From Rhodothermales bacterium (GTDB taxonomy: Bacteria; Bacteroidota; Rhodothermia; Rhodothermales; DATKEJ01): a stretch of DNA of 64,000 nt. A program made the translations under genes and the position numbers. This document shows, piece after piece, positions 2,912 to 61,975 of the stretch. The notes below the pieces were generated by a model. It saw only the letters and a list, made by a program, of their open reading frames with translations. It was not told the origin of the DNA and did no database searches. The DNA lies in the NCBI GenBank assembly GCA_965250215.1, contig CBDFNN010000004.1, positions 4,443,403-4,507,402 of the forward strand, in the 5' to 3' direction. Position 1 is the first letter of the stretch. Every line of letters begins with the position of its first letter.

Positions 2912-3535
2912 CTACTCTAATCCTTCTTCAGAGTCAGCGATAATGTGGATCGAGAAATTTTCAGGATTTTTCCCCTCAGCCAGCGAAAAGAAGGTATTTA
3001 AACTCTCCATATCAGAGTTGAAGTTATCATTTGGGATCAGAAGATCGCCAAAAGTTATCGTTTTCGTTTTATAATCGAATGAGACGGGAAAAAGAGGAAC
3101 ATCTGCCTCTTTCGCCATGAAGTAGAAGCCTGTCTTCCATTTGTCACGCTTGGATCTTGTGCCTTCGGGGGTAATGGCCAAAGCCATTTTATCGGCGTCC
3201 TTAAAGGCCTGAGCTACCTGATCAACTACACCGAGCTTTTTATCCCTAATTACCGGAATTCCACCGAGAGCTTTCATGATTCTGCCCACTGGTGGTTTGA
3301 AGAGACTGTCCTTGCCCATCCATGATATCTTCAATTGTATCGCGGCCCTCGCTGCTATCCCAACAAAGAAATCCCAGTTAGAGGTATGTGGCGCCACGAT
3401 CATGATGAACTTTGGAACGTTCGGGATTTCGCCAGCAAACTTCCAACCCATCAGTTTCATTTGTAATCGCCCAAGAGCCTGGGAAAGGAAATTTCCCTTC
3501 CGTGGAAGCTTCGATCCAACAGTGTAATCTTTCAA
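2912..3535 (-). CDS. lysophospholipid (1-acyl-sn-glycerol-3-phosphate) acyltransferase family protein
   Basis: 207 aa with the HxxxxD acyltransferase motif (APHTSNWDF). It is a paralog of the ORF at 49770..50492. Confidence 0.7.
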   Translation of the reverse strand: MKDYTVGSKLPRKGNFLSQALGRLQMKLMGWKFAGEIPNVPKFIMIVAPHTSNWDFFVGIAARAAIQLKISWMGKDSLFKPPVGRIMKALGGIPVIRDKKLGVVDQVAQAFKDADKMALAITPEGTRSKRDKWKTGFYFMAKEADVPLFPVSFDYKTKTITFGDLLIPNDNFNSDMESLNTFFSLAEGKNPENFSIHIIADSEEGLE

Positions 3536-5092: not shown

Positions 5093-5650
5093 ATGAAATA
5101 CTACACCCTTAAACTGAGCACGGTTCTTGCCGTCATACTACTTTTAGCCTCAAGTCCTTCCTTTGCTCAAACCGATTTAGCGACTTCCAGTGCGGCCTTT
5201 GATTCGGGTCTGAGCGATAAAGATCTCGCCCTGAAAAACGAACTATTGGCACTGGATCCTACCAATACCAAGCATATTGCAAAAGGTGCTATATACTTCT
5301 CCCAAGACCTTGCAGACGAAGGGCCTCAACCTGATGCTGACGAAGGGCCTCAACCTGATGCTGACGAAGGGCCTCAACCCGATGCTGACGAAGGGCCTCA
5401 ACCCGATATGCATGTAGTTGAAGGCGGCAGTGTGATAGTTCTTGAGCTTGTGTACGGAAAGTTAAATACAAACGTTTTGTTTGGGACTGCCGAATGGGAT
5501 AAAGTTACCATTCGCGGCACAAGAATTGTAACAAACGAACAGAAGATCGAAGTGAATCGATACTTTATTCGAACATTTACTGTTGAGGAAGGTGCGTGGA
5601 AGATTTCATCGTGGGTCGAGATGACTCTCAAATCTGATGATGAAGAGTAG
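5093..5650 (+). CDS. secreted hypothetical protein with 4x DEGPQPDA tandem repeats and a small C-terminal domain
   Basis: Signal peptide MKYYTLKLSTVLAVILLLASSPSFAQ. Four perfect 8-aa repeats are encoded by a 24-bp DNA tandem. Confidence 0.6.
   Translation: MKYYTLKLSTVLAVILLLASSPSFAQTDLATSSAAFDSGLSDKDLALKNELLALDPTNTKHIAKGAIYFSQDLADEGPQPDADEGPQPDADEGPQPDADEGPQPDMHVVEGGSVIVLELVYGKLNTNVLFGTAEWDKVTIRGTRIVTNEQKIEVNRYFIRTFTVEEGAWKISSWVEMTLKSDDEE
5315..5410 (+). repeat. 24-bp tandem repeat, 4 copies (gacgaagggcctcaacctgatgct), inside the CDS
   Basis: Direct reading: near-identical units at 5315, 5339, 5363 and 5387. Only wobble changes (cct/ccc) distinguish them. Confidence 0.9.
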
Positions 5651-9268: not shown

Positions 9269-10324
9269 ATGGATATCGCCGCAGCAGACGCTTCAATCGA
9301 GAGTGTTAAAGAGTACTACGGAAAAACCCTAAAAACACAGGACGATCTAAAGACGACGGCCTGTTGCACAGCGGACGCCCTTCCGAACTATATCAAGAAT
9401 ATTGTCGCGGAAATCGAAGACGAGGTCGTCATCAAGTACTACGGATGCGGATCCCCGCTTCCTGTCAGTTTAGAAGGCTGCACCGTATTAGATCTTGGAA
9501 GCGGAACTGGTCGAGACGTCTATGTCGCCTCTAAGCTCGTTGGTCCAGACGGATACGTGATTGGCATCGACATGACGGATGAGCAACTGGAAGTCGCCAA
9601 TCGGTACAAGGAATCCCAGACTCGGAAATTCGGCTTCGACACACCTAATGTCGAATTCAGAAAAGGCTACATCGAGGATCTCAAAGGTGCTGGTATCAAG
9701 GACAATTCTATCGATGTCGTCATTTCCAATTGCGTCCTGAATCTTTCTCCTGAAAAATCAAAAGTCTTCGAGGAAATATATCGAGTCCTCAAACCCGGAG
9801 GCGAGCTATTTTTTGCAGACGTTTTTGCGGACAGACGTATTCCGGAGGACTTACAATACGATCCGATTATCAGAGGCGAATGCCTTGGCGGTGCGATGTA
9901 CGGAGAAGATTTCCGCCGAACGATGAGCGAGATCGGCTTTGCCGATTTCAGGATCCTAAAATCCTCCCCGATAGACGTCGAGGACGAGCAGATTGCGCGC
10001 AAGCTTGGCAATATTAAATTCCGATCAGACACTGTCCGAGCTTTTAAACTAGATAGCTTGGAAGATCGATGTGAGGACTTCGGCCAAGTTGCTACCTACC
10101 TCGGCACGATTGAGGAGAGCCCCCACTCTTTTGAATTAGACGATCATCATCTATTCGAGACAGGCAGACCCATGCTGGTCTGCGGTAATTCCGCCGCGAT
10201 GCTTGAGGAGACAAGGTTCGGAAAACACTTCAGAATCGACGGCAAACGGGATACTCACTTTGGGCTTTTTGACTGCGAGCCGGCACCTGCAAACTCCGAT
10301 ACTGAAGGTGGGAGTTGCTGCTAG
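9269..10324 (+). CDS. arsM: arsenite S-adenosylmethionine methyltransferase
   Basis: SAM-binding motif VLDLGSGTGRDV. ArsM-like conserved Cys are present (ACC near the N-terminus, ISNCVLNL, RGECLGGA), and the architecture matches ArsM. Confidence 0.75.
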   Translation: MDIAAADASIESVKEYYGKTLKTQDDLKTTACCTADALPNYIKNIVAEIEDEVVIKYYGCGSPLPVSLEGCTVLDLGSGTGRDVYVASKLVGPDGYVIGIDMTDEQLEVANRYKESQTRKFGFDTPNVEFRKGYIEDLKGAGIKDNSIDVVISNCVLNLSPEKSKVFEEIYRVLKPGGELFFADVFADRRIPEDLQYDPIIRGECLGGAMYGEDFRRTMSEIGFADFRILKSSPIDVEDEQIARKLGNIKFRSDTVRAFKLDSLEDRCEDFGQVATYLGTIEESPHSFELDDHHLFETGRPMLVCGNSAAMLEETRFGKHFRIDGKRDTHFGLFDCEPAPANSDTEGGSCC

Positions 10325-10404
10325 GAGATAGTCGTCAAATCTCAGTTGCAGTCGTCAGGAAGATTAGCTGAGAGCAGCTCTAACGAAGTATATCTCCCTT
10401 ATGA

Positions 10405-10435
10405 ATTCTGAAATCTGACGACTGAAGACTGACTA
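10405..10435 (+). repeat. dispersed repeat family A (core CTGACGACTGAAG), left copy flanking the four-helix-bundle gene
   Basis: Sequence is ctgaaatctgacgactgaagactgactac. Related copies occur at 10838, 44019 and 50579. Confidence 0.8.
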
Positions 10436-10783
10436 CTTCCTCGCAAGTTTGAGCAATTTGGAAAGCATCTTCTTTACTTCAATTGTTGTGGACCTCCAAG
10501 CAGTAAACTCCTCAAGGTTGACAAGGGCAGCCTGCTTAAGAAAAATCAACTGGTACTCGACTTCGCAAGCGGAGCTAAAGGCCATCTGGAAGAAGTGAGC
10601 TTTGTCTTTTTCAGTCCTCCGTCCACATCCCTCCGCTATATTGCAGGAGACGGAGAAGGAAGATCTTCGAATCTGATTTACGAGATACCTATCATTGTAA
10701 CCGACCCGCTTTGTTGCTTGATAAATACTGAAACTTAGAGCATGCGCCTTGCGCCAGACAATTAGATTTTGAAAGTCCTGCAT
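10433..10783 (-). CDS. four-helix-bundle protein (23S rRNA intervening-sequence protein family)
   Basis: 116 aa beginning MQDFQNLIVWRKAHALSFSIYQATK, the typical N-terminus of the TIGR02436-like family. Confidence 0.8.
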   Translation of the reverse strand: MQDFQNLIVWRKAHALSFSIYQATKRVGYNDRYLVNQIRRSSFSVSCNIAEGCGRRTEKDKAHFFQMAFSSACEVEYQLIFLKQAALVNLEEFTAWRSTTIEVKKMLSKLLKLARK

Positions 10784-10837
10784 TCAATTTAATAATAAAG
10801 ACACCGCATCACTCAGTACATAACCTTCTCAGTTCTT

Positions 10838-10870
10838 CTCTGACGACTGAAGGCTGAGGGCTGACGACTA
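10838..10870 (+). repeat. dispersed repeat family A, right copy flanking the four-helix-bundle gene
   Basis: Sequence is tctgacgactgaaggctgagggctgacgactac. It is in the same orientation as the copy at 10405, and both end in gactac. Confidence 0.8.
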
Positions 10871-12561
10871 CCCTGGAAAACTCTGTTCAAATAGCAACGC
10901 GTTCTGCCGACTTCATCGCCGAGGAATACAACTCCTACATCGATGAATTCCTCCTCATCTCGGGACGGGCTCGAGAGCGATTTGAGCAAAGAGATTGGGC
11001 TGGAGCAAAACTTGACAGTGCGGCACGTCTTAAGGTCTACAATAGAAGTATTCGAGATACGACCCAAGGCCTTCGGGGTATTCTAGGGGACAACTACACC
11101 AAAAAGGAAGAGTGGGCTATCATCAAGAGAGCTTTTGGTGACCGAGCAAGGGGACATCAAGATATTGAGCTTGCAGAGACCTACTACAATTCCGTTGTGA
11201 GAAAAGTCTATTTGAGGCATCAAGCTGATCCACTCATTCAGTTCGTTGGATCTCGATATGAAAGATTTAGACACGAGCCTGCTGAGCCTATCTACTGGAC
11301 TTGCTGGTCTTCGGAAGGGACGGCAGATCTTGTCAAGAAAATTGTCAGTCGTGCTTTTGACACCGACTTATTTCGAGACCTTCAAATTGATAGTCTGAAA
11401 GCCGCAGAGCTGATTGACAAAGACCTCCGTGGAAATGAGATCGATGTAATTGAAATTCTAAAGCCCGTATTCTTTCGAAACAAAGGGGCCTATTTAGTCG
11501 GGCGCGTCATTTATAAAAATGGAAAAGCTGCACCCCTCGCGCTGGCACTCTTGCATCAGGAAGATGGAGTTTTCATTGATGCAGTTTTAGCCACACAAAA
11601 GTCCGTCGAAAACATTTTTGGCTTTACGCGATCCTATTTTCAAGTCGACTCGCCCACCCCAAATCGCTTGGTCCACTTCCTGAAGAATGTTCTTCCGCGC
11701 CACTACTCCTCAGAGTTGTACATCTCCCTCGGATTCGACAAGCATGGAAAAACCGAGCTCTTCCGCGATCTCAAATACCACCTCTCGCTAAACGAAGCCA
11801 TTATCGAGGCTCCGGGAATCGAAGGGATGGTAATGATGGTCTTTACTATGTCGACTTTCGATTACGTATTCAAGATCATCAAAGACAAATTCGAACCACC
11901 AAAAACGGTGACACACGAGATCGTCAGAGAACGCTATCAATACATATTTGTCCATGATCGCGTGGGTCGTCTGATGGATACGCAGGAGTTCAACTTCGTC
12001 AAGTTTCCAAAGGAAAAGTTTGATCCTAAATTGTTAGAGGAACTGCTCCAGAAAGCAGGAGACACGGTCATTGTTCAAGGAAATGATGTGCTTATAAAGC
12101 ATATGTACATCGAAAGGAAAGTGGTCCCTCTCAATATCTTCGTCAAGGAGTTTCCGGAAAATGACGTTGTGGATGTGGTTTCCGATTATGGGCAGGCCAT
12201 GAAGGATCTTTCGGCAGCGAACATTTTTCCTGGCGACATTTTCTTGAAAAACTTTGGTGTGACAAAGAACAACCGAGTCGTCCTTTATGACTATGATGAA
12301 GTCTGTAGAATCACCGACTGCGACTTTGACACACTCCCCGATCGGGATGATTTTGGAGGAGAAATCCATGTCGACCCGGACACTGTTTTTCCTTCTGAAT
12401 TAAGAACTTATCTCGGACTGAAGCAGCCATACCGAGCTCACTTTGAAGCGGAGCACAGCGATATTTTCACGGTTGAGTTTTGGAATCAAAGAAAGAAAGA
12501 GATTGAGGATGGCCGATGGGTTGATTTCTATCCTTACGGAAAAGAACATCGTTTGGATTAA
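10861..12561 (+). CDS. aceK: bifunctional isocitrate dehydrogenase kinase/phosphatase
   Basis: The first in-frame ATG is at 11197. The open frame upstream back to the stop at 10855 encodes a conserved AceK N-terminus (ERFEQRDWAGA, cf. E. coli QQRFEQADW). The start is therefore non-ATG or lost, and the 5' end is approximate. Confidence 0.75.
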   Translation: MTTTLENSVQIATRSADFIAEEYNSYIDEFLLISGRARERFEQRDWAGAKLDSAARLKVYNRSIRDTTQGLRGILGDNYTKKEEWAIIKRAFGDRARGHQDIELAETYYNSVVRKVYLRHQADPLIQFVGSRYERFRHEPAEPIYWTCWSSEGTADLVKKIVSRAFDTDLFRDLQIDSLKAAELIDKDLRGNEIDVIEILKPVFFRNKGAYLVGRVIYKNGKAAPLALALLHQEDGVFIDAVLATQKSVENIFGFTRSYFQVDSPTPNRLVHFLKNVLPRHYSSELYISLGFDKHGKTELFRDLKYHLSLNEAIIEAPGIEGMVMMVFTMSTFDYVFKIIKDKFEPPKTVTHEIVRERYQYIFVHDRVGRLMDTQEFNFVKFPKEKFDPKLLEELLQKAGDTVIVQGNDVLIKHMYIERKVVPLNIFVKEFPENDVVDVVSDYGQAMKDLSAANIFPGDIFLKNFGVTKNNRVVLYDYDEVCRITDCDFDTLPDRDDFGGEIHVDPDTVFPSELRTYLGLKQPYRAHFEAEHSDIFTVEFWNQRKKEIEDGRWVDFYPYGKEHRLD

Positions 12562-13217: not shown

Positions 13218-13332
13218 CCTAGGTCCTAGTTCGTGAGATTCAGGAGCTCATCGCGAAAGGAAGGAGCAAACAGGAATGTCCTTAATTTCTATTTTAGGCT
13301 ATCTGAATCTTGCACCGGCCAACGTCCACCAT

Positions 13333-13366
13333 TCGGAACACAGAACACGGAACACGGAACACGGAA
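13333..13366 (+). repeat. heptamer tandem mini-repeat (GAACACG)n, repeat family C
   Basis: Sequence is gaacacagaacacggaacacggaacacggaaaa. An inverted copy lies at 54971..54998. Confidence 0.8.
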
Positions 13367-13378
13367 AATACCTCCCTC

Positions 13379-41690: not shown

Positions 41691-43136
41691 TTGCTATCTT
41701 TCGACATGAAAATCATGAATCGCATTACGAGCTTTCTAGTAGTCTTGTCTTTCCTAACGATCGACCTTTCAGCGACGGATCTCGAGATAAAGAACACACG
41801 CGTTGCAAATCGAGACAATGTTGCCCAAACACCGGTCAGCGTTCTCTTCGATTTGAAGTGGGAGAATGCATGGCACAACGATCGTAATCATGATGCCGTT
41901 TGGGTCTTCATGAAGTTTGGTGGTTCCTACAACAACCATGTCAAAATCGCCAAGGATGGCCATCGCATCCTCCAGAATCGAATCTCTAACTTCTTGGTCC
42001 ATATCGAAGTATCCGAGGATCAAATGGGCTTCTATATTCGACCAACTGAAAAATATCGGGGACCGATTGATTTGAAGCTTCAAATCCGAATCGACACCAC
42101 TGGAATTAAACCATCCAGAAGTCAACTAACACAGCTAAAGGTCAATGGTTTGGAGATGGTTTACATCCCACAAGGAGCCTTCAGTGTCGGTAGTCCAGAC
42201 GAAGAAGCCATAGAGCGAGCTGCACTATACGAGAGCGATGCCCAAGGAAAGTCTCGCGGCAGCTATCGAATAGATAGCGAAGCAGCCATCGAGATCGGAC
42301 CAAAGGCCGGTTCATTGTACTACTGGAGCGAGCGGGCACTTTATAATGGCGATCAAGAAGGACCTATCCCAGCCTCTTTTCCAAAGGGATTCAACTCCTT
42401 TTACATCATGAAATATGAATTGACACAGGGTCAGTATGCTGATTTTCTAAACGATCTTCCCGCAGCATGGACCTCTACTCGATCTCCCATTGGAGGACGT
42501 GACTATTACAAAAAACGAGGAGGAATTCGAATCGTGGATGGCATCTACGTGGCAGACACTAGCAAGAGACCGATGAATCAAATCAGTTTTACAGATGGAT
42601 TGGCTTATTCGGATTGGGCTGGTCTTCGACCTATCACAGAGCTCGAATTCGAAAAATCCGCGAGAGGCACAGTCGAAGCAAGTCCGGCGGATTTCCCCTG
42701 GGGCAATAATAACTACGACCAACTTGAACGATACGTCACGGAAGACGGTGAACTCGAGATGGCAAATGGAAACAAGGAATCAGAACTCAAGGAATCCAAG
42801 AGGCCAGTTTTTGGCGCATCCTTTTATTGGGTGATGGATTTGAGCGGAAGTGTTTGGGAAAAAGTGATCACTATCGGCAATCCAATTGGGCGGATGTTTG
42901 AGGGAAGTCACGGAGACGGAAAATTGAGTTTCGGCCATGCAACCAACTCGGATTGGCCATCAAGCGATGATGAAGTCGGCGGCTTTGGCTATAGGGGAGG
43001 AGGGTATTATGAGCTAGGGACTGTTCTTTCCGATTTTAATCCACATTCTCCGATCGGATATCGCTACTATGGCGCTTGGTCTGGTGGTCCCAGATCGATA
43101 GCTTATGGATATCGGGCAGGCCGGACGGCAGGCTAG
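41691..43136 (+). CDS. secreted protein with FGE-sulfatase (SUMF1/EgtB-like) domain
   Basis: Signal peptide. FGE-like motifs include MVYIPQGAFSVGSP, ISFTDGLAYSDWAGLRPITELEFEKSARG and GSVWEKV. The TAG stop is the first unit of a GGCTAGAG repeat. Confidence 0.65.
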   Translation: MLSFDMKIMNRITSFLVVLSFLTIDLSATDLEIKNTRVANRDNVAQTPVSVLFDLKWENAWHNDRNHDAVWVFMKFGGSYNNHVKIAKDGHRILQNRISNFLVHIEVSEDQMGFYIRPTEKYRGPIDLKLQIRIDTTGIKPSRSQLTQLKVNGLEMVYIPQGAFSVGSPDEEAIERAALYESDAQGKSRGSYRIDSEAAIEIGPKAGSLYYWSERALYNGDQEGPIPASFPKGFNSFYIMKYELTQGQYADFLNDLPAAWTSTRSPIGGRDYYKKRGGIRIVDGIYVADTSKRPMNQISFTDGLAYSDWAGLRPITELEFEKSARGTVEASPADFPWGNNNYDQLERYVTEDGELEMANGNKESELKESKRPVFGASFYWVMDLSGSVWEKVITIGNPIGRMFEGSHGDGKLSFGHATNSDWPSSDDEVGGFGYRGGGYYELGTVLSDFNPHSPIGYRYYGAWSGGPRSIAYGYRAGRTAG

Positions 43137-43160
43137 AGGCTAGAGGCTAGAGGCTAGAAA
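43131..43160 (+). repeat. 8-bp tandem repeat (GGCTAGAG) x ~3.7
   Basis: Sequence is ggctagaggctagaggctagaggctagaaa, overlapping the stop codon of the FGE-like gene. Confidence 0.85.
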
Positions 43161-43193
43161 AATTATAAGATCAAGAACAAAAACCAAGTAATA

Positions 43194-43700: not shown

Positions 43701-43794
43701 TCGACTATCTAAAATCCGACGTCAAAGATAATCTCTCAATCCTACTGAACATGGAACACGGCAAACTGAACACCACGCCTCCGAAAGCTAACGA

Positions 43795-44001
43795 CTAAAG
43801 AGTACTCAGTGACGGAGGAAGGTTATTCCTAGCCCATTCTTTGTTCGGCTTTTCTCCCATTTCGAAGACGAGATTTCCGCCTTTGACGATGTCGCTATGG
43901 CGGATCCACCCCTGATCAAATGGCTGTCCATTCAGACTCGCAGATTGGATGTACTTGTTTTCTGCTGATACATTCCGAGCCTCGATTTCGAAAACCTTCC
44001 C
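43795..44001 (-). pseudogene. C-terminal remnant of a GH92 alpha-mannosidase
   Basis: Encodes GKVFEIEARNVSAENKYIQSASLNGQPFDQGWIRHSDIVKGGNLVFEMGEKPNKEW, which is a GH92 C-terminal signature. There is no upstream coding continuation; the N-terminus of ORF 43795..44091 is junk derived from repeat A. Confidence 0.55.
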
Positions 44002-44018
44002 GCTATCAAGCTCTTCCT

Positions 44019-44050
44019 GACGACTGAACGCTGAAGGCTGACGACTATAA
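44019..44050 (+). repeat. dispersed repeat family A copy
   Basis: Sequence is cctgacgactgaacgctgaaggctgacgactat. Confidence 0.8.
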
Positions 44051-44791
44051 ATACTCAAACAGCATCTCCAACATCTCGGGCCGGCCGGCATAGATCGGAA
44101 AAGGCACGACTTCGCCTCCTAGCCACATAGAAATATCGAAGTCCGTGCCATCGGCTAAGACAACCTTTCCCCCATTTTGCCGAACCATCGCGATGCCCCC
44201 AGCGATGTCCCAAGGAAATACTCCTTCTAACCAGACGGCATCTACACCGCCGCTGGCCAAGTATGAAAGATGTGCTGCACCGGATCCAAAGCAATTGATC
44301 TGTCCAGGAAAATTGGCAGCTATCCGTCGGGTCCTGTGGGATACCGTTGTCACAAATACTAAGGTCTCGTTGTGCAATGGTCTGACCTTCTTCATCTGCA
44401 CGCGAGTGCCGTTCATAAATACGCTTCCGCCTTCTGTGTGATACATTTGGTCGATCACAGGCATGTAGAAGTATCCTTCTTTTTCTTTGCCATCCTCGAT
44501 CAGTCCAATGGCCATGCCCCAGACCGGAAAGCCACCGACGAAGGACGCCGTCCCATCAATAGGATCCACAATCCATTGTCGATTTCCCGATCTCGCTTCT
44601 TTCCTTTGCCCCTCCTCTTCGCCAATGATTCCATCCTCCGGAAAATGTTTTTCAAGTTGCTCCACTATAAAAGCCTGGACAGCCAAATCTGCTGCCGTGA
44701 CGTAGGTCCGATTGCCTTTCATAGAAGGTTCTACTTTTCGATAATGACTTAAAGCAATCGATCCAGCTTCTTTTATTATTTCTTGTATCAC
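44045..44791 (-). CDS. inositol monophosphatase family protein (SuhB/IMPase-like)
   Basis: Motifs WIVDPIDGT and EE...metal-binding, plus WDIAGG, typical of the IMPase family. Confidence 0.8.
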   Translation of the reverse strand: MIQEIIKEAGSIALSHYRKVEPSMKGNRTYVTAADLAVQAFIVEQLEKHFPEDGIIGEEEGQRKEARSGNRQWIVDPIDGTASFVGGFPVWGMAIGLIEDGKEKEGYFYMPVIDQMYHTEGGSVFMNGTRVQMKKVRPLHNETLVFVTTVSHRTRRIAANFPGQINCFGSGAAHLSYLASGGVDAVWLEGVFPWDIAGGIAMVRQNGGKVVLADGTDFDISMWLGGEVVPFPIYAGRPEMLEMLFEYL

Positions 44792-46301: not shown

Positions 46302-46370
46302 AGTTTTGGGTGATGAGTTATGGGTTATGTGTTCTATTCAAGACTAGATTTTTGAACTACTCATCACCAA
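46302..46370 (+). repeat. hairpin element, repeat family D (stem GGTGATGAGT ... ACTCATCACC), copy 1
   Basis: A perfect 10-bp inverted repeat separated by ~46 nt. The loop begins tatgggttatgtg. It lies between the GH stop and the RRM-like gene. Confidence 0.75.
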
Positions 46371-46769: not shown

Positions 46770-47960
46770 TCACACCCGGCCTTCGGCGGGCCGGTTGAGA
46801 TGACTTGCCAATAGGCTATGAAAGTGGTGGACGCCTTTTTCCATCGTAGGTGAAAAGCGGCCGGCCTCGTAGAACCTGGACTTCAGCCCCTTGTGAACTC
46901 CCTCCACAACAAACTCGTCCTCCCTCTCAACTTTGTCTAATATTGATCCTGCACCAGAAGCCAGTTTCGACTGGTCATAGACATAAGAAATGAATGACAC
47001 TTTTGTCTTATCCATCGAGATAGGTCGAACAATATTGATCGACAGACCCCAGGGGTAGAAATTGAACATCATGTTCGGGAAGGCCCAGTAATAATAGGCG
47101 GCAACATGCCGACCAAAATCTGGGTGACCTTGGGGTAAATCGAAAACCTCCTCTCCCCCTGACGAATAGCCTATCTGGAGATTGCAGTGATCGTAGATCT
47201 CCGTCGTGTAATCGCCATAGTCTAGGACATCGTTCAGATCGCTGTGAACAAATGGGATATGGAATCCTTCGAGGTAATTGTCGCAGTAGAGCGCCCAATG
47301 ACAATTGATCAAATAGTCCTTTCCGTGACTCGTGTCAAGCTTGAATTCATTCAAAGGAAGGAATCCGACTCGCTCCTTCATTTTATCAATGACGCTAGAA
47401 AAATCGAAGGATGGATCTGGAGAGACAAAAAGATGCTGGCCCCACTCTCTGAGCTGAAATTCGTGCAGGTCATCACAGGGTCTCGGAAAATCTTCTGCCT
47501 CTTCAAACTGTGGCATCTTTCTGAACTTCCCGTCGAGCCCGAAGCGTCGCCCATGATACATGCAAATCATGTTCCTCTGCTTGGCTGGATTTTGTACAAC
47601 CAGATTTCCTCTATGTGTACATACGTTTGTAAAGCATCGAACCTTACTGTCCGAATCTCTACTCAAGACCATCGGCTCCGTCAGATAATTGTCCAGCATT
47701 ACGAAGGGATGTACCGACTCGTCCAGCGCGACCAAATCCTTATCGCCAATCCATTGCCACGACTTAAGAAAGACCTTCTCCTTAATGGCCTCGAAGACGG
47801 CTTCATCCTTATAGAAAGAGGCCGGAAGGGTTGAGGCCTTAGTGATATCTGGGTCGATTTGAAATTGGTTATGCGTGATGAGTGATGGGTATTGGGTTGA
47901 AGAAATATTATTACGTGCTAGCAAAGGTAAGAATTGAGAGAAAATAAACTCATCACCCAT
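46770..47960 (-). CDS. Rieske [2Fe-2S] non-heme iron oxygenase alpha-subunit-like protein
   Basis: Rieske motifs CTHRG...CMYHGRRF and a mononuclear Fe motif NCHWALYCDNYLEGFHIPFVH. The first ~30 codons overlap repeat D copy 2, so the start is uncertain. Confidence 0.65.
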   Translation of the reverse strand: MGDEFIFSQFLPLLARNNISSTQYPSLITHNQFQIDPDITKASTLPASFYKDEAVFEAIKEKVFLKSWQWIGDKDLVALDESVHPFVMLDNYLTEPMVLSRDSDSKVRCFTNVCTHRGNLVVQNPAKQRNMICMYHGRRFGLDGKFRKMPQFEEAEDFPRPCDDLHEFQLREWGQHLFVSPDPSFDFSSVIDKMKERVGFLPLNEFKLDTSHGKDYLINCHWALYCDNYLEGFHIPFVHSDLNDVLDYGDYTTEIYDHCNLQIGYSSGGEEVFDLPQGHPDFGRHVAAYYYWAFPNMMFNFYPWGLSINIVRPISMDKTKVSFISYVYDQSKLASGAGSILDKVEREDEFVVEGVHKGLKSRFYEAGRFSPTMEKGVHHFHSLLASHLNRPAEGRV

Positions 47961-47978
47961 AACACATCACCGATCACT
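47873..47978 (+). repeat. hairpin element, repeat family D, copy 2
   Basis: GTGATGAGTgatgggtattggg ... ACTCATCACccataacacatcaccgatcac. Same stem as copy 1, and the loop begins gatgggtat. Confidence 0.7.
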
Positions 47979-48034
47979 CTTTCTCATTATCCAATAAATA
48001 CGAAGGCCGGCAGCATTTGAACATTATGGTATAT

Positions 48035-50494: not shown

Positions 50495-50640
50495 TCGGTG
50501 TTGCGTGCTCCGAAACTGGTGGCGGGTTGCGGTTTGCGGAAAGAGCTTTAGCCTGTGGCCAATACAGAAGCGGAGTTCAATTTCTGAAGGCTGACGACTG
50601 AATTCTGAAGACTGAAAGCTGATTCCTGACGACTGCTTTC
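50495..50640 (+). repeat. composite repeat cluster: family B copy (50495..50545) followed by family A copies (50579..50640)
   Basis: The B copy is ggtgttgcgtgctccgaaactggtggcgggttgcggtttgcgg. The A copies are tctgaaggctgacgactgaattctgaagactgaaagctgattcctgacgactg. Confidence 0.8.
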
Positions 50641-50689: not shown

Positions 50690-51928
50690 ATGAAACTCGT
50701 AACTATGACGATCAGATATGTACTTGGACTGAGCTTGTTGATAAGCTTGGGATGCCAATCTCCCGCCAATTCTCAACAGGCCAGCAATCAAGAAGTAGAT
50801 TCGCCAGGAATTCAGAACATCTCGGACCGAGCCCAAACGAGGGATCGCGACTTGGCTCTTGCACAAATTGCCAATAGTCGATCAACAGCTATCACTCAGG
50901 CCGTTAATCACGTTTCCCCAGCCGTCGTAAGTGTCACCTTGACCGGAACAGAGCGCGTCGCCTACCGAGACAATTTTATGGATATCTGGTCTCAGTTCAT
51001 GGGCCAGCGTCCTAGGACTCAATATGCCGATCGTCAGGTAAATAGCCTTGGTTCCGGATTCCTAATTTCCAACGACGGCTATATCGTGACAAACGATCAC
51101 GTGATTGGACCGAAAAGACGTCAAGGTGTGGTTGATTCCGACATAGAAATAATTGTCTCCTTTTCTGACGGCAGTAAACTGAATGCTGAATTGGTCGGAT
51201 CTGACCCCGTGAGCGACATCGCACTCTTGAAGGTTAGCTCCGAGGAAATTCTTGACTACATAAATTTCGATACCTCCGAGAGCGTTCTCGTTGGCGAATG
51301 GGCCATAGCACTGGGCAGTCCTTACGGACTATTCCAAGCTTCTGAGCCAACCGTTACCGTGGGAGTTGTCAGTGGATATGGTAGAGATTTCGATCCACAA
51401 GATGGCCGGCTCTATCGTGATATGATCCAGACAGATGCGGCTATTAATCCAGGAAATTCTGGCGGACCTTTGGTAAATGCCATCGGCGATGTCATCGGCG
51501 TAAACTCTTTTATCTATTCCAGAGCGGGCGGATCTGACGGAGTGGGCTTTGCTGTCCCGGCTTACACCGTTACGGAGATCGTTACGGAGCTAAAGGAGAA
51601 TGGATTTATCGACCGAGCGCAGGCCAGCGATCTCGGAATTCAAGCGCGAGATCTTTCCACAATTAGAAATAGACGAGTCTTCGATCGCCTGAAGCTGACT
51701 GACACCCGAGGAATTATTGTCACAGAAGTTAGAGAGGATACTCCTGCAGAAAGGTCAGGTATCGAACTCTATGACGTCATTCGAGCGGTTGGCGATCAAG
51801 AGATTAGATCCGGAGCAGACTATCAGACATTTCTATCGGAATTCCGACACGGCGAGACGGTACCTCTCACCGTGATTCGAGAAGGAGAAGAGAGGATTAT
51901 TGAAGTCGCTATTGACAATACGCCTTAG
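50690..51928 (+). CDS. HtrA/DegP-family periplasmic serine protease with C-terminal PDZ domain
   Basis: Catalytic triad contexts TNDHVI, DIALLKV and GNSGGPLVN. Lipoprotein-type signal. Confidence 0.85.
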   Translation: MKLVTMTIRYVLGLSLLISLGCQSPANSQQASNQEVDSPGIQNISDRAQTRDRDLALAQIANSRSTAITQAVNHVSPAVVSVTLTGTERVAYRDNFMDIWSQFMGQRPRTQYADRQVNSLGSGFLISNDGYIVTNDHVIGPKRRQGVVDSDIEIIVSFSDGSKLNAELVGSDPVSDIALLKVSSEEILDYINFDTSESVLVGEWAIALGSPYGLFQASEPTVTVGVVSGYGRDFDPQDGRLYRDMIQTDAAINPGNSGGPLVNAIGDVIGVNSFIYSRAGGSDGVGFAVPAYTVTEIVTELKENGFIDRAQASDLGIQARDLSTIRNRRVFDRLKLTDTRGIIVTEVREDTPAERSGIELYDVIRAVGDQEIRSGADYQTFLSEFRHGETVPLTVIREGEERIIEVAIDNTP

Positions 51929-52019: not shown

Positions 52020-52134
52020 AGACTCCTCGACCTCCCCTGTGCCCCTGTTCTCCCGTGCCCCTATTCCCCCGAGCCCCCGTGCCCCTGAGCTCCTCAGCCC
52101 CCGTGCCCCTGAGCCCCCGAGCTCCCGAGCCCCC
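52020..52134 (+). repeat. tandem mini-repeat array (CCCGTGCCCCTGAGC-like, ~15-21 bp units)
   Basis: ctcccgtgcccctattcccccgagcccccgtgcccctgagctcctcagcccccgtgcccctgagcccccgagctcccgagcccccgtgcccc. Both strands give artefactual ORFs (SPRAPE / GARGL). Confidence 0.8.
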
Positions 52135-53187
52135 GTGCCCCTGAGCCCCTTTCTTCTCCTCCTTCTTTTTACCCAAGCCTGTCTCCCAGGCAGCCCCTCT
52201 GAACCGAAAGCACTATTCCCAGCCGACTCTCTTTCCAGAAGCATCGCCGAATCCTTACCGGTTGAGGGCATGGAGCTTCTATGGGAAAAAACTCGAGAAT
52301 CTGATGCATTTGGTCATCTTAGTGCAGTTCGATTTACAGAGTCTAAAATATTCCTCAGCGATCTAGAAAATGGAAGGGTTCTGAGCTACAATTTGGATGG
52401 CGATCTGGAAGACTTCGAACTGGATCAACCGCTGAGTTTTCCTTATCTCCTACAGGCAAAATCAGATAGTCTTGTAATCTTCAATGCTGGAAATCCATCC
52501 ATAGACTGGTACATAAAAGGCGAGCATTCACGGACAACGAGCCTACCTGCATTCGGCGAGGGCAAGTCACTCACCTACTTCCCTTCCGTGTACCGAGATA
52601 AGATCTTCCTCAAAACCCAGCCAGAGAAAGGGCAATCGGAGTTATATCAACTCGACCAGGTCAGCGGAGAGATCGAAGACAGTACGATGCTAGCTGGACC
52701 CTCTTGGATTCATAAGGGCTTTCTCAGATCAAATGATAGCGAGCTCCTTAGCATCTCCTCCTACTATCCCAACATTTATTTGGCCGGAACTGGATTGAGC
52801 CAGGACTCACTCAGACTTCAAGGCTTTGACACTCCCATGCTGGCGCGAATGAGAAACAAAGCGATTGGCGAAGGTGATGAAGCACCTTTGATAATTTCCT
52901 CAGCGGTGCTCAAGGATTCTCTCTTCTTCGTCACCAACCTAAGACCCGGTTGGGCTCGGGTGGATGTCTATGACAGGAAGGGTCTTCTCCAAAACATTCT
53001 TGAAGAGGAGTTACCTCCTGCCCCTACAGACTATAACACTCTTGATATAGACGTTATGAGAGATGGTGACGACTATTTGATAGCTCTGATAGCTGTCAAG
53101 CAAGTCCACAAGACTATCTCTATAGAGTATCACGCCAAGCTCAGTCTTTTTCGCTGGAATAGAAGAATGCTTGCTAATTCCAAATAA
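52135..53187 (+). CDS. hypothetical lipoprotein, probably beta-propeller-like
   Basis: An in-frame GTG at 52135 gives MPLSPFLLLLLFTQAC, a canonical lipoprotein signal. The upstream part of ORF 51973 is repeat-derived. Confidence 0.5.
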   Translation: MPLSPFLLLLLFTQACLPGSPSEPKALFPADSLSRSIAESLPVEGMELLWEKTRESDAFGHLSAVRFTESKIFLSDLENGRVLSYNLDGDLEDFELDQPLSFPYLLQAKSDSLVIFNAGNPSIDWYIKGEHSRTTSLPAFGEGKSLTYFPSVYRDKIFLKTQPEKGQSELYQLDQVSGEIEDSTMLAGPSWIHKGFLRSNDSELLSISSYYPNIYLAGTGLSQDSLRLQGFDTPMLARMRNKAIGEGDEAPLIISSAVLKDSLFFVTNLRPGWARVDVYDRKGLLQNILEEELPPAPTDYNTLDIDVMRDGDDYLIALIAVKQVHKTISIEYHAKLSLFRWNRRMLANSK

Positions 53188-53466
53188 TTGTAGAGACCAG
53201 AGAAGGTGAGATTTTTTCTCTTGGACCATAATATTTGGGATTCTGCCAAGGTGAGGCCGCTCGAAAAAGACGTCGGTGCTGCTGCGAGGCACTTGTCTTC
53301 ATTTGGAGGAAACTTGGACACAAGAGAGAATCCTAACCAACATGGAATATTGCCCGAGCTACTAGCGCTGACACACTACTCGCAACCCGCAACCCGAAAC
53401 TTATTACCCAACTTTGTCTTGGCTCTAATGTCTATTTTCAAATCCATCTAATACCCATTTCGCTGC

Positions 53467-54972: not shown

Positions 54973-54998
54973 AGACCGTGTTCCGTTTTCCGTGTTCA
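54971..54998 (-). repeat. repeat family C, inverted copy
   Basis: agaccgtgttccgttttccgtgttc, which is the rc of gaacacggaaaacggaacacggtct. It matches 13333..13366. Confidence 0.75.
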
Positions 54999-55110
54999 GT
55001 CTTCCGAATTCCATTGGTCGGGCAAGGCTATTCTGAAAACGAGATCCGAGATACCAAACTCGAATCTCTCCGTCAACCAGAGTCCAGCTTGGCCCTGATT
55101 TCTATTCCTG

Positions 55111-61875: not shown

Positions 61876-61894
61876 GGAAGAAAAACGTTTCTTG

Positions 61895-61975
61895 TCTCTC
61901 GTCTCTCGTTCTTTTCGCTACTCCCCCCTCCTCACTCCTCACTGCCCCCTCCTACTCCTCCAATTGCTCTCCTTC
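61895..61975 (+). repeat. tandem mini-repeat tract (TCTCG and CTCCTCA(C) units)
   Basis: tctcgtctctcgttcttttcgctactcccccctcctcactcctcactgccccctcctactcctcc. Overlaps the 3' end of the accC ORF call. Confidence 0.7.

Follow-up and report, generated by a model that had tools for sequence, protein, structure and literature searches.

We analysed a stretch of 64,000 nucleotides (hereafter the window) from the genome of a Rhodothermales bacterium (assembly GCA_965250215.1, contig CBDFNN010000004.1). In it, a module of about 555 bp (10321-10875) occupies the entire spacer from the stop codon of an arsM-like gene to the start region of aceK. The module carries a short four-helix-bundle gene together with arrays of tandem heptamers, and its layout is a TCAG-type arm, 49 nt, a CTGA array, the gene in reversed orientation, another 49 nt and a CTGA-type arm. 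The left neighbour (9269..10324, + strand) encodes an ArsM-like S-adenosylmethionine-dependent methyltransferase (Methyltransf_31, E 1.4e-33), whose best NCBIfam match, PRK11873, scores 199.6 bits, below the cutoff of 263. The right neighbour (10861..12561, + strand) is aceK, recognised by a profile match and by its alignment to full-length AceK. A first-pass annotation of the window had put an insertion between arsM and aceK, and this placement holds with the left gene read as ArsM-like.

The four-helix-bundle gene itself is also present as had been described: the ORF (open reading frame) list of the window contains a frame of 116 aa at 10433..10783 on the minus strand. Its product matches PF05635 (23S_rRNA_IVP; E 2.1e-28, 99.1 bits against a cutoff of 33.8) and TIGR02436 (four helix bundle protein; E 1.6e-28, 99.1 bits against a cutoff of 24) and, being above both curated cutoffs, is a clear member of this family. 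Sequence relatives with a solved structure in the PDB are 2GSC and 2RLD, with five chains deposited for each. An identical protein is on record (P0001, on a 4.53-Mb contig), and the next homologue is just 51% identical. The protein retains the NIAEGCGR motif. Many of its homologues match PF22296 too, which we take to be the bAvd family. Elsewhere, PF05635 members have been noticed inside cas loci, in rRNA insertions of the candidate phyla radiation (CPR) and among strain-unique genes.

The promoter scan of the locus gave no minus-strand match for the gene. A sigma-70-like match (TTGAAA, 16 nt, AATAAT) lies at 10769-10796 on the + strand, within the 5'-terminal part of the four-helix-bundle gene. 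It is directed at aceK, across the right array, and is a match to the consensus only.

Around the gene, the repeat consists of degenerate heptamers in tandem, (CTGAnnn)3-7. The first-pass annotation had listed it as a dispersed repeat, family A, and the repeat is indeed real and enriched; however, the annotation had taken a tandem heptamer array for a single repeat and had missed a third, inverted copy beside the gene. CTGACGACTGAAG has two exact copies, at 10415 and 10840, and two copies with a single mismatch, at 44017 and 50591. When up to two mismatches are allowed there are 7 matches against 1.77 expected, a number that none of 100 shuffles reaches. In the window, the core TGACGACT occurs 13 times (2.1 expected) and runs of at least three CTGAnnn units occur four times on the + strand (0.005 expected). 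A chance low-complexity match was therefore rejected, the counts of repeats and arrays being far above those in shuffles. CRISPR-like and integron-like readings were dropped as well, as the units are 7 nt long and contiguous, without spacers.

The forward CTGA arrays, all on the + strand, are located at 10408-10437, 10838-10870, 44017-44050 and 50584-50635. A fifth array of the family, inverted, lies at 10327-10358, directly past the stop codon of the arsM-like gene. The units include CTGACGA, CTGAAGG, CTGAGGG, CTGAAGA and others, none of them being exactly TAACTGA. The two forward arrays next to the gene share a 19-nt direct repeat, 10414-10432 versus 10839-10857, with 18 of 19 positions identical. 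These are the two same-orientation copies of the first-pass annotation; their similarity stands, while the starts that were given for them, 10413 and 10838, are 1 nt too low.

From left to right, the module begins with an arm at 10321..10362 that contains the inverted TCAG-type array, as seen from inverted pairs, the minimum free energy (MFE) stem and duplex prediction, and that has the TAG stop codon of the arsM-like gene (10322-10324) at its base. It is followed by a spacer of 49 nt (10359..10407), which in the local fold is the loop of a hairpin between the left arm and the internal CTGA-type array (10408..10437, + strand). This internal array, the former "left copy", overlaps the end of the four-helix-bundle gene, whose stop codon (cta, 10433-10435) falls inside it. 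On the other side of the gene, 49 nt (10784..10832) separate it from the right arm (10833..10875, + strand), which contains the CTGA-type array at 10838-10870, the former "right copy", and lies directly before aceK.

The MFE fold of 10318-10885 is closed by pairing of 10321-10362 with 10833-10875 on both strands, with a z-score of -2.9 for the + strand. Complementarity of the two outer arms extends over about 40 nt, and the predicted stem encloses the gene. The local hairpin of the left arm and the internal array is predicted at -35.9 kcal/mol on the + strand and -39.4 kcal/mol on the minus strand. In duplex prediction the left arm reaches -57.5 kcal/mol with the distal array (10828-10880) and -32.2 kcal/mol with the proximal one. 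Since the left array pairs best with the right array, inverted repeats form the boundaries of the gene, which makes the "left copy" an additional array on the inside. Further, both arms carry stop codons when read outwards: read on the minus strand, the left arm has TGA in all three frames, and the right arm has TGA in all three + frames, immediately ahead of aceK.

Among the ORFs scanned within about 10 kb there is no family match to a transposase, an integrase or a reverse transcriptase. No reverse transcriptase domain was found in the neighbouring ORFs scanned, and no search aimed at template and variable repeats was made. In 10250-10950, Rfam gives C/D-box matches at noise level only and no known RNA family, and the terminator scan found no intrinsic terminator at the arrays.

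The right arm coincides with an irregularity at the start of aceK. The frame of this gene is open from 10858 and can be aligned to full-length AceK (570-590 aa) from about 10873. Between the in-frame TGA of the array (10855-10857) and a GTG at 11197 there is no ATG, GTG or TTG; the only candidate starts are CTG at 10861, CTG at 10873 and ATA at 10891. The start codon of aceK has either been replaced by the array, or the array supplies a CTG start. In the source annotation the aceK product (P0097) has 454 aa and is 109 codons short. Gene starts beside such arrays thus risk being mis-called in annotation, with aceK as an example.

Next, we studied how the gene is packaged in other genomes. A 12-sequence alignment (A3) was the basis for retrieving 80 metagenomic loci with homologues by protein patterns only, and the 66 genes with full 130-nt flanks were counted. 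Within 130 nt, an array is found upstream of 53 genes, downstream of 58, on both sides of 48 and on neither side of 3. For 76 control ORFs in the same loci the numbers are 8 upstream, 7 downstream and 0 on both sides. Seen from the arrays, 144 of the 197 in the homologue loci lie at most 130 nt from a four-helix-bundle gene. It is period 7 alone that is enriched: it is found at 52 and 54 of the 66 genes for the two flanks, while any other period reaches at most 10. The core class varies between loci, with CTGA (44) being the most common, followed by CTAG (8), CTAA (8), CTCA (5) and others.

The two flanks of one locus are reverse-complementary, with a median best ungapped score of 14 against 7 for flanks of different loci (p = 4e-19). 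In direct orientation the median is 8, near the cross-locus background of 7. Across the family the pair that bounds the gene is therefore inverted, and the direct repeats that the first-pass annotation had taken as its boundary do not have this role. To be placed between inverted period-7 arrays is the rule for PF05635-type genes: the unit varies, while the period is kept and the arms remain complementary.

Stops in all three frames are present on the outward-reading arms in 77 of 113 arrays and on the inward-reading arms in 32 of 113, compared with 30% for random heptamers. The enrichment is confined to the outward-reading arms of the CTGA, CTAG and CTAA classes; the viral GCCGA, ACTCTCC and AATTCCC array classes are without all-frame stops. 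These viral classes come from IMG/VR contigs, where by eye all 10 homologues have flanking inverted heptamer repeats, with the units GCCGAnn, ACTCTCC and AATTCCC. The period-7 detector, run on 9 viral-contig homologues, found an array upstream of 8, downstream of 5 and on both sides of 5.

In two Balneola genomes the module is found antisense inside a macAB-like operon with the same layout as in the window. In both loci (L201 and L202, 9880-10451) the gene sits between the membrane-fusion and the ABC ATPase genes, and its downstream array, which has an AGCT core and is bordered by an A-run and a T-run, folds back on itself in the manner of a bidirectional terminator. Another metagenomic locus of 6 kb (L166) has two paralogues, at 673-1062 and 3001-3360, which differ in the class of their flanking repeats, one being GAGTTGCTTG-like and the other TCAGC.

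Presence and absence of the module can be compared in conjugative Nostoc plasmids, which share a conserved operon with filled and empty sites at three junctions. The filled sites hold two different paralogues and two different array classes. Site 1 lies between a 441-nt gene and a 288-nt gene. It is filled in NZ_CP046704 and NC_010632, with a 38-nt TCAG array, the gene, whose last codons are the CTGA array, and 16 nt. In four other plasmids it is empty and consists of the stop codon, 3 nt and the ATG, without any array. Between the stop codon and the start codon, a plasmid thus has either the complete block of arrays and gene, about 420 bp, or nothing of it. At the right junction about 10 nt of the target are repeated (ggttctag-gtt), and this repeat is itself like an array unit.

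At site 2, the next junction, NZ_CP046706 has the other paralogue, flanked by GGGGAAA/TTTCCCC arrays, and the site is empty elsewhere. At the third junction, inverted-array inserts of 240-290 nt without any ORF are found in two plasmids and none in two others. These TCAG/CTGA inserts are located at 1230-1520 in L205 and at 530-870 in L208. In the sister plasmids L207 and L209 the junction is 10-16 nt. L209 has no insert here, yet its upstream gene already ends with aattcaggag, a sequence similar to an array unit. As array hairpins without an ORF are present or absent at an operon junction, gene-less relatives of the module exist. In Nostoc plasmids the module is gained and lost as a block at stop/start junctions. 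The insertion cassette proposed in the first-pass annotation is consequently supported to the extent that the gene and its repeats form a discrete unit in Nostoc; its boundaries differ from those proposed.

The site-1 element alone (query 946-1366) recurs with 78-81% identity in plasmids of Trichormus, Aulosira and Scytonema. The flanks of these copies are unmatched in the same blastn search, and the neighbouring genes differ in the Trichormus locus (L206). The plasmids gamma (L203) and alpha (L204) of Nostoc PCC 7120 each encode an identical copy of one protein of the family (WP_010994075.1). There the gene adjoins an ISL3 transposase gene or a fragment of it, and is followed by an array of four to five CTTCTGC units. 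These sequences suggest that the four-helix-bundle gene may be able to travel as a passenger of an insertion sequence (IS) in this strain. The sequence after the array is found again, inverted, further upstream in the gamma-plasmid locus; it may be the IS terminal repeat.

The CTGA arrays are by no means limited to this gene. A scan with CTGACGACTGAANNCTGA over 185,579 species genomes gave at least 120 loci in other phyla, and the numbers that follow are among the matches listed. The loci come from Acidobacteriota, Chloroflexota, Planctomycetota, Armatimonadota, CPR, Deinococcus, Bacteroidales and others, and nearly all of them are CTGAnnn arrays, mostly of 3-6 units. The right end of an array usually adjoins the limit of a gene, where a gene on the reverse strand stops or one on the forward strand starts. 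An inverted partner is found on the left for 40 of 123 arrays, and in 38 of these it is 9-135 nt away, forming a hairpin without an ORF; on the right only 2 arrays have a partner. A four-helix-bundle gene is present within the 8-kb piece at 3 of 120 loci, and at one of these three it sits in the hairpin loop. The repeat is therefore not specific to a cassette. By its sequence, the CTGA-type repeat can be placed in a very widespread class of intergenic heptamer arrays.

Heptamer arrays are also frequent within the window itself. We found 24 arrays of period 7 in the 64 kb, compared with about one in shuffles, while periods 5-11 give 0-8. They belong to at least six families of units, of which CTGA is one and CGGAACA, GGTTGCG, AGGCTAG and GGTTATG are others, and several of these families are found in both orientations. 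All-frame stops are found in the CTGA family only; the other 19 arrays are without them. Examples of the further arrays are those at 13331-13370, 43126-43161, 46302-46335, 47863-47979, 50518-50540, 53376-53401, 54975-55012 and 61886-61953. One of the families forms a hairpin, 47863-47899 with 47947-47979, where a Rieske-type oxygenase gene (46770-47960) has its 5' end.

The solo CTGA arrays reported in the first-pass annotation do exist, at 44017-44050 and 50584-50635, although the statement that they have no associated gene is not quite right. The former, on the + strand between two minus-strand genes, is flanked by the stop of an inositol-monophosphatase-family gene (44048-44791, minus strand) and by a GH92 remnant. 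Of the 464 positions of the Pfam profile, this C-terminal remnant (43798-44016, minus strand) covers 411-464. It is truncated on the side that touches the array, and its own stop lies inside a degenerate two-unit array, CTAACGACTAAAG, at 43788-43800. The array at 50584-50635 (+ strand) has seven units, stands beside a GGTTGCG array (50518-50540) and is located 55 nt upstream of the ATG of a trypsin-like/PDZ protease gene (50690..51928). With arrays at the GH92 remnant and at the lost start of aceK, it appears that arrays mark rearrangement junctions in this genome.

Longer tandem repeats occur inside ORFs of the window, at 5311-5407 (24 nt x 4, 97% identity) and at 52034-52150, a CCCCTGTGCCCCTGAG-type array of 16/24/32 nt.

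The closest known counterpart of the module is the intervening sequence (IVS) of rRNA. In Coxiella burnetii, helix 45 of the 23S rRNA contains an IVS of 428 nt with an S23p ORF and a 28-bp terminal stem. Two to three tandem GACAGAT heptamers precede the ORF, their number varies between strains, and RNase III cleaves at the first of them (PMC4990558). The window locus shares with rRNA IVSs a PF05635 ORF, a similar size (about 555 versus 428 nt), terminal inverted repeats that form a long stem, and tandem heptamers beside the ORF through which the stem runs. Further, the distribution of rRNA IVSs is sporadic, suggestive of horizontal transfer, and the homologues in Nostoc plasmids are sporadic as well. 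In contrast to an IVS, the window element is located between protein-coding genes and not in a helix of 23S or 16S rRNA. Its unit is CTGAnnn instead of GACAGAT, and it has a third array with an extra local hairpin; excision by RNase III is known for rRNA IVSs.

In our view the module is likely to be an element of the 23S-rRNA IVS type in free-standing form. In a host transcript that crosses the module, the arms would pair and extrude the insert as a side branch. By analogy with the IVSs of Coxiella and Leptospira, the side branch would probably be a substrate of RNase III. The outward stops would end translation that leaves the insert, right at the boundary of the neighbouring gene. Extrusion and probable cleavage of the branch, together with the outward stops, would thus make an insertion tolerable both in tight operon junctions and in rRNA helices.

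A number of observations weigh against this interpretation. RNase III cleavage has been shown for rRNA IVSs only (PMC4990558), so its extension to the window is by analogy. Within the TCAGC class, the complementarity of the arms is only modestly above that between loci (14 versus 12, p = 0.004). G.T and A.C mismatches are equally common in the arms (56 versus 62), and hence nothing points to selection for pairing at the level of the gene-sense RNA; the complementarity could instead reflect an origin by inverted duplication or an action at the DNA level. Array pairs also enclose ordinary genes, such as a thiE-like gene and rplT, among the matches listed, and two thirds of the CTGA arrays listed there are solo, which means that arrays exist independently of the gene.

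At the locus itself, no convincing target-site duplication is visible in the window. An empty arsM-aceK site cannot be shown, because the source genome is without an available close relative; identity to the closest AceK homologue is 45%, and that to the closest four-helix-bundle homologue is 51%. Finally, in the window protein the family-conserved, near-invariant residues F27, P28, E31, G70 and D84-L85 are all replaced, and it has a one-residue deletion relative to the family, with the ORF still intact. With these departures from conserved residues, the protein may be decaying or under relaxed constraint.

Two other explanations, both of which we regard as improbable, account for part of these data. 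According to the first, the gene is a cassette delimited by direct repeats, which arose either by target-site duplication or when a circle of gene and array recombined into a resident array; the solo arrays are then footprints or empty attachment sites. The 19-nt direct repeat, identical at 18 positions, is what such a cassette predicts, and the order TCAG arm, loop, CTGA array, gene, CTGA array recurs around four-helix-bundle genes (L121, L127 and L199) and a thiE-like gene (L092). The repetition of about 10 nt of target at Nostoc site 1, and arrays at rearrangement junctions of the window (the GH92 remnant and the lost aceK start), point in the same direction. However, in the 66 homologues the direct-repeat score of the flanks is at background (8 versus 7), while the inverted score is 14, and in the window the pairing of the inverted copy is far stronger with the distal than with the proximal array. 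No recombinase is found among the ORFs scanned within 10 kb, and arrays outnumber genes, only 3 of the 120 array loci among the matches listed having one.

The second explanation, to which we give equally little weight, is that the arrays are operators: a toroidal pentamer would bind single-stranded heptamers, one core per subunit, as TRAP does with GAG repeats. The protein would then regulate its own mRNA and, in trans, the genes at solo arrays, such as aceK and the protease gene at 50690. A core that is constant at period 7, with three variable positions in each unit, would fit such binding, and so would arrays that are mostly of 3-6 units among the matches listed. The structural relatives 2GSC and 2RLD are pentameric, with five chains each (PMC4990558). 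Solo arrays lie directly upstream of start codons, both among the listed loci and in an earlier survey of heptamer repeats (PMC4679880), and paired MTYCTGA x5 sites in Geobacter have been ascribed to an unidentified regulator (PMC2700814). Further, distant arrays in a locus resemble the arrays of the local gene somewhat more than those of other loci (mean score 11.4 versus 7.3, p = 0.004).

Against specific binding, homologues that are 80% identical can have different cores, and protein identity within a core class is barely above that between classes (0.56 versus 0.51). CTGA, CTAG and CTAA interchange, which is more like a demand for any stop codon than like a protein-binding site. The 64 kb have at least six array families but one such gene, and the block-wise presence and absence is left unexplained. 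It should be noted that binding by a pentamer is compatible with an IVS-type module; the two are not mutually exclusive.

That the arrays are generic intergenic furniture, such as terminators or translation-reset signals, with the gene merely lying between two of them, is hardly credible: 24 arrays in 64 kb do put one in nearly every second intergenic spacer, and ordinary genes are flanked too (the Rieske-type oxygenase gene at 46770-47960, and thiE-like and rplT genes elsewhere), but two of the four forward CTGA-class arrays and the sole inverted one surround the four-helix-bundle gene, arrays on both sides distinguish 48 of 66 homologues from 0 of 76 controls, with 144 of 197 arrays within 130 nt of the gene, and the empty sites in Nostoc lack both gene and arrays.

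Heptamer repeats in bacterial intergenic DNA have been described on several occasions, as short tandemly repeated repetitive (STRR) sequences since 1990, as the Geobacter sites in 2009 and as TAACTGA repeats in 2015. The cyanobacterial STRR heptamers and the TAACTGA repeats can be grouped as kin of the window arrays. TAACTGA direct repeats are found in Beggiatoaceae, Cyanobacteria and Bacteroidetes, mostly just upstream of start codons; inverted pairs are almost absent there, and the paper mentions neither 23S, S23 nor four-helix proteins (MacGregor 2015, PMC4679880). Like the arrays of the window, they are intergenic tandem heptamers with a CTGA core (TAACTGA being CTGATAA rotated). Their main positions, forward before starts or reverse after stops, recall those at aceK, 50584 and 44017, with the reservation that aceK has no canonical start codon beside its array and that the array at 50584 stands 55 nt before its ATG. 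Indels in steps of 7 nt and a suspected role in rearrangement are a further likeness. The difference is that the units in the window are degenerate, with CGA, AGG, GGG, AGA and others after CTGA. In Geobacter metallireducens, paired MTYCTGA x5 sites have been read as binding sites of an unidentified global regulator (PMC2700814). These, too, are heptamers with a CTGA core, about five in tandem, and most of the sites form inverted pairs; unlike in the window, no associated gene was described there (PMC2700814).

Miniature inverted-repeat transposable elements (MITEs), repetitive extragenic palindromic (REP) sequences and REPINs resemble the module in being short, intergenic and bounded by inverted repeats, with and without an ORF. 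However, the arms in the window are heptamer arrays, free in sequence and fixed in period, and the cargo is neither a transposase nor a RAYT. The accessory protein Avd of diversity-generating retroelements binds nucleic acid and forms a pentameric torus of four-helix bundles. The window protein is related to it by family, many homologues also matching PF22296. The locus differs from such a retroelement in having no reverse transcriptase among the ORFs scanned within about 10 kb.

A wider possibility, which we put forward tentatively and hold to be doubtful as a whole, is that four-helix-bundle genes with inverted heptamer arrays make up one very large, cross-phylum class of small mobile modules that insert at stop/start junctions and in rRNA helices. 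Orphan arrays and hairpins without an ORF, including STRR, TAACTGA, the CTGA sites of Geobacter and the 24 arrays of the window, might then be derivatives or landing sites, and the toroidal pentamer might be the period-7 "ruler" that makes, maintains or uses the arrays.

A full-text literature search, with subscription-only papers outside its scope, found no paper that connects this gene family in general with inverted heptamer arrays, and the connection appears to be undescribed so far. It joins two old puzzles that have been separate until now, an unexplained gene family on the one side and the origin and role of intergenic tandem heptamers on the other. Both gain testable hypotheses from it, namely RNase III processing, all-frame termination, binding by a pentamer and insertion driven by microhomology.

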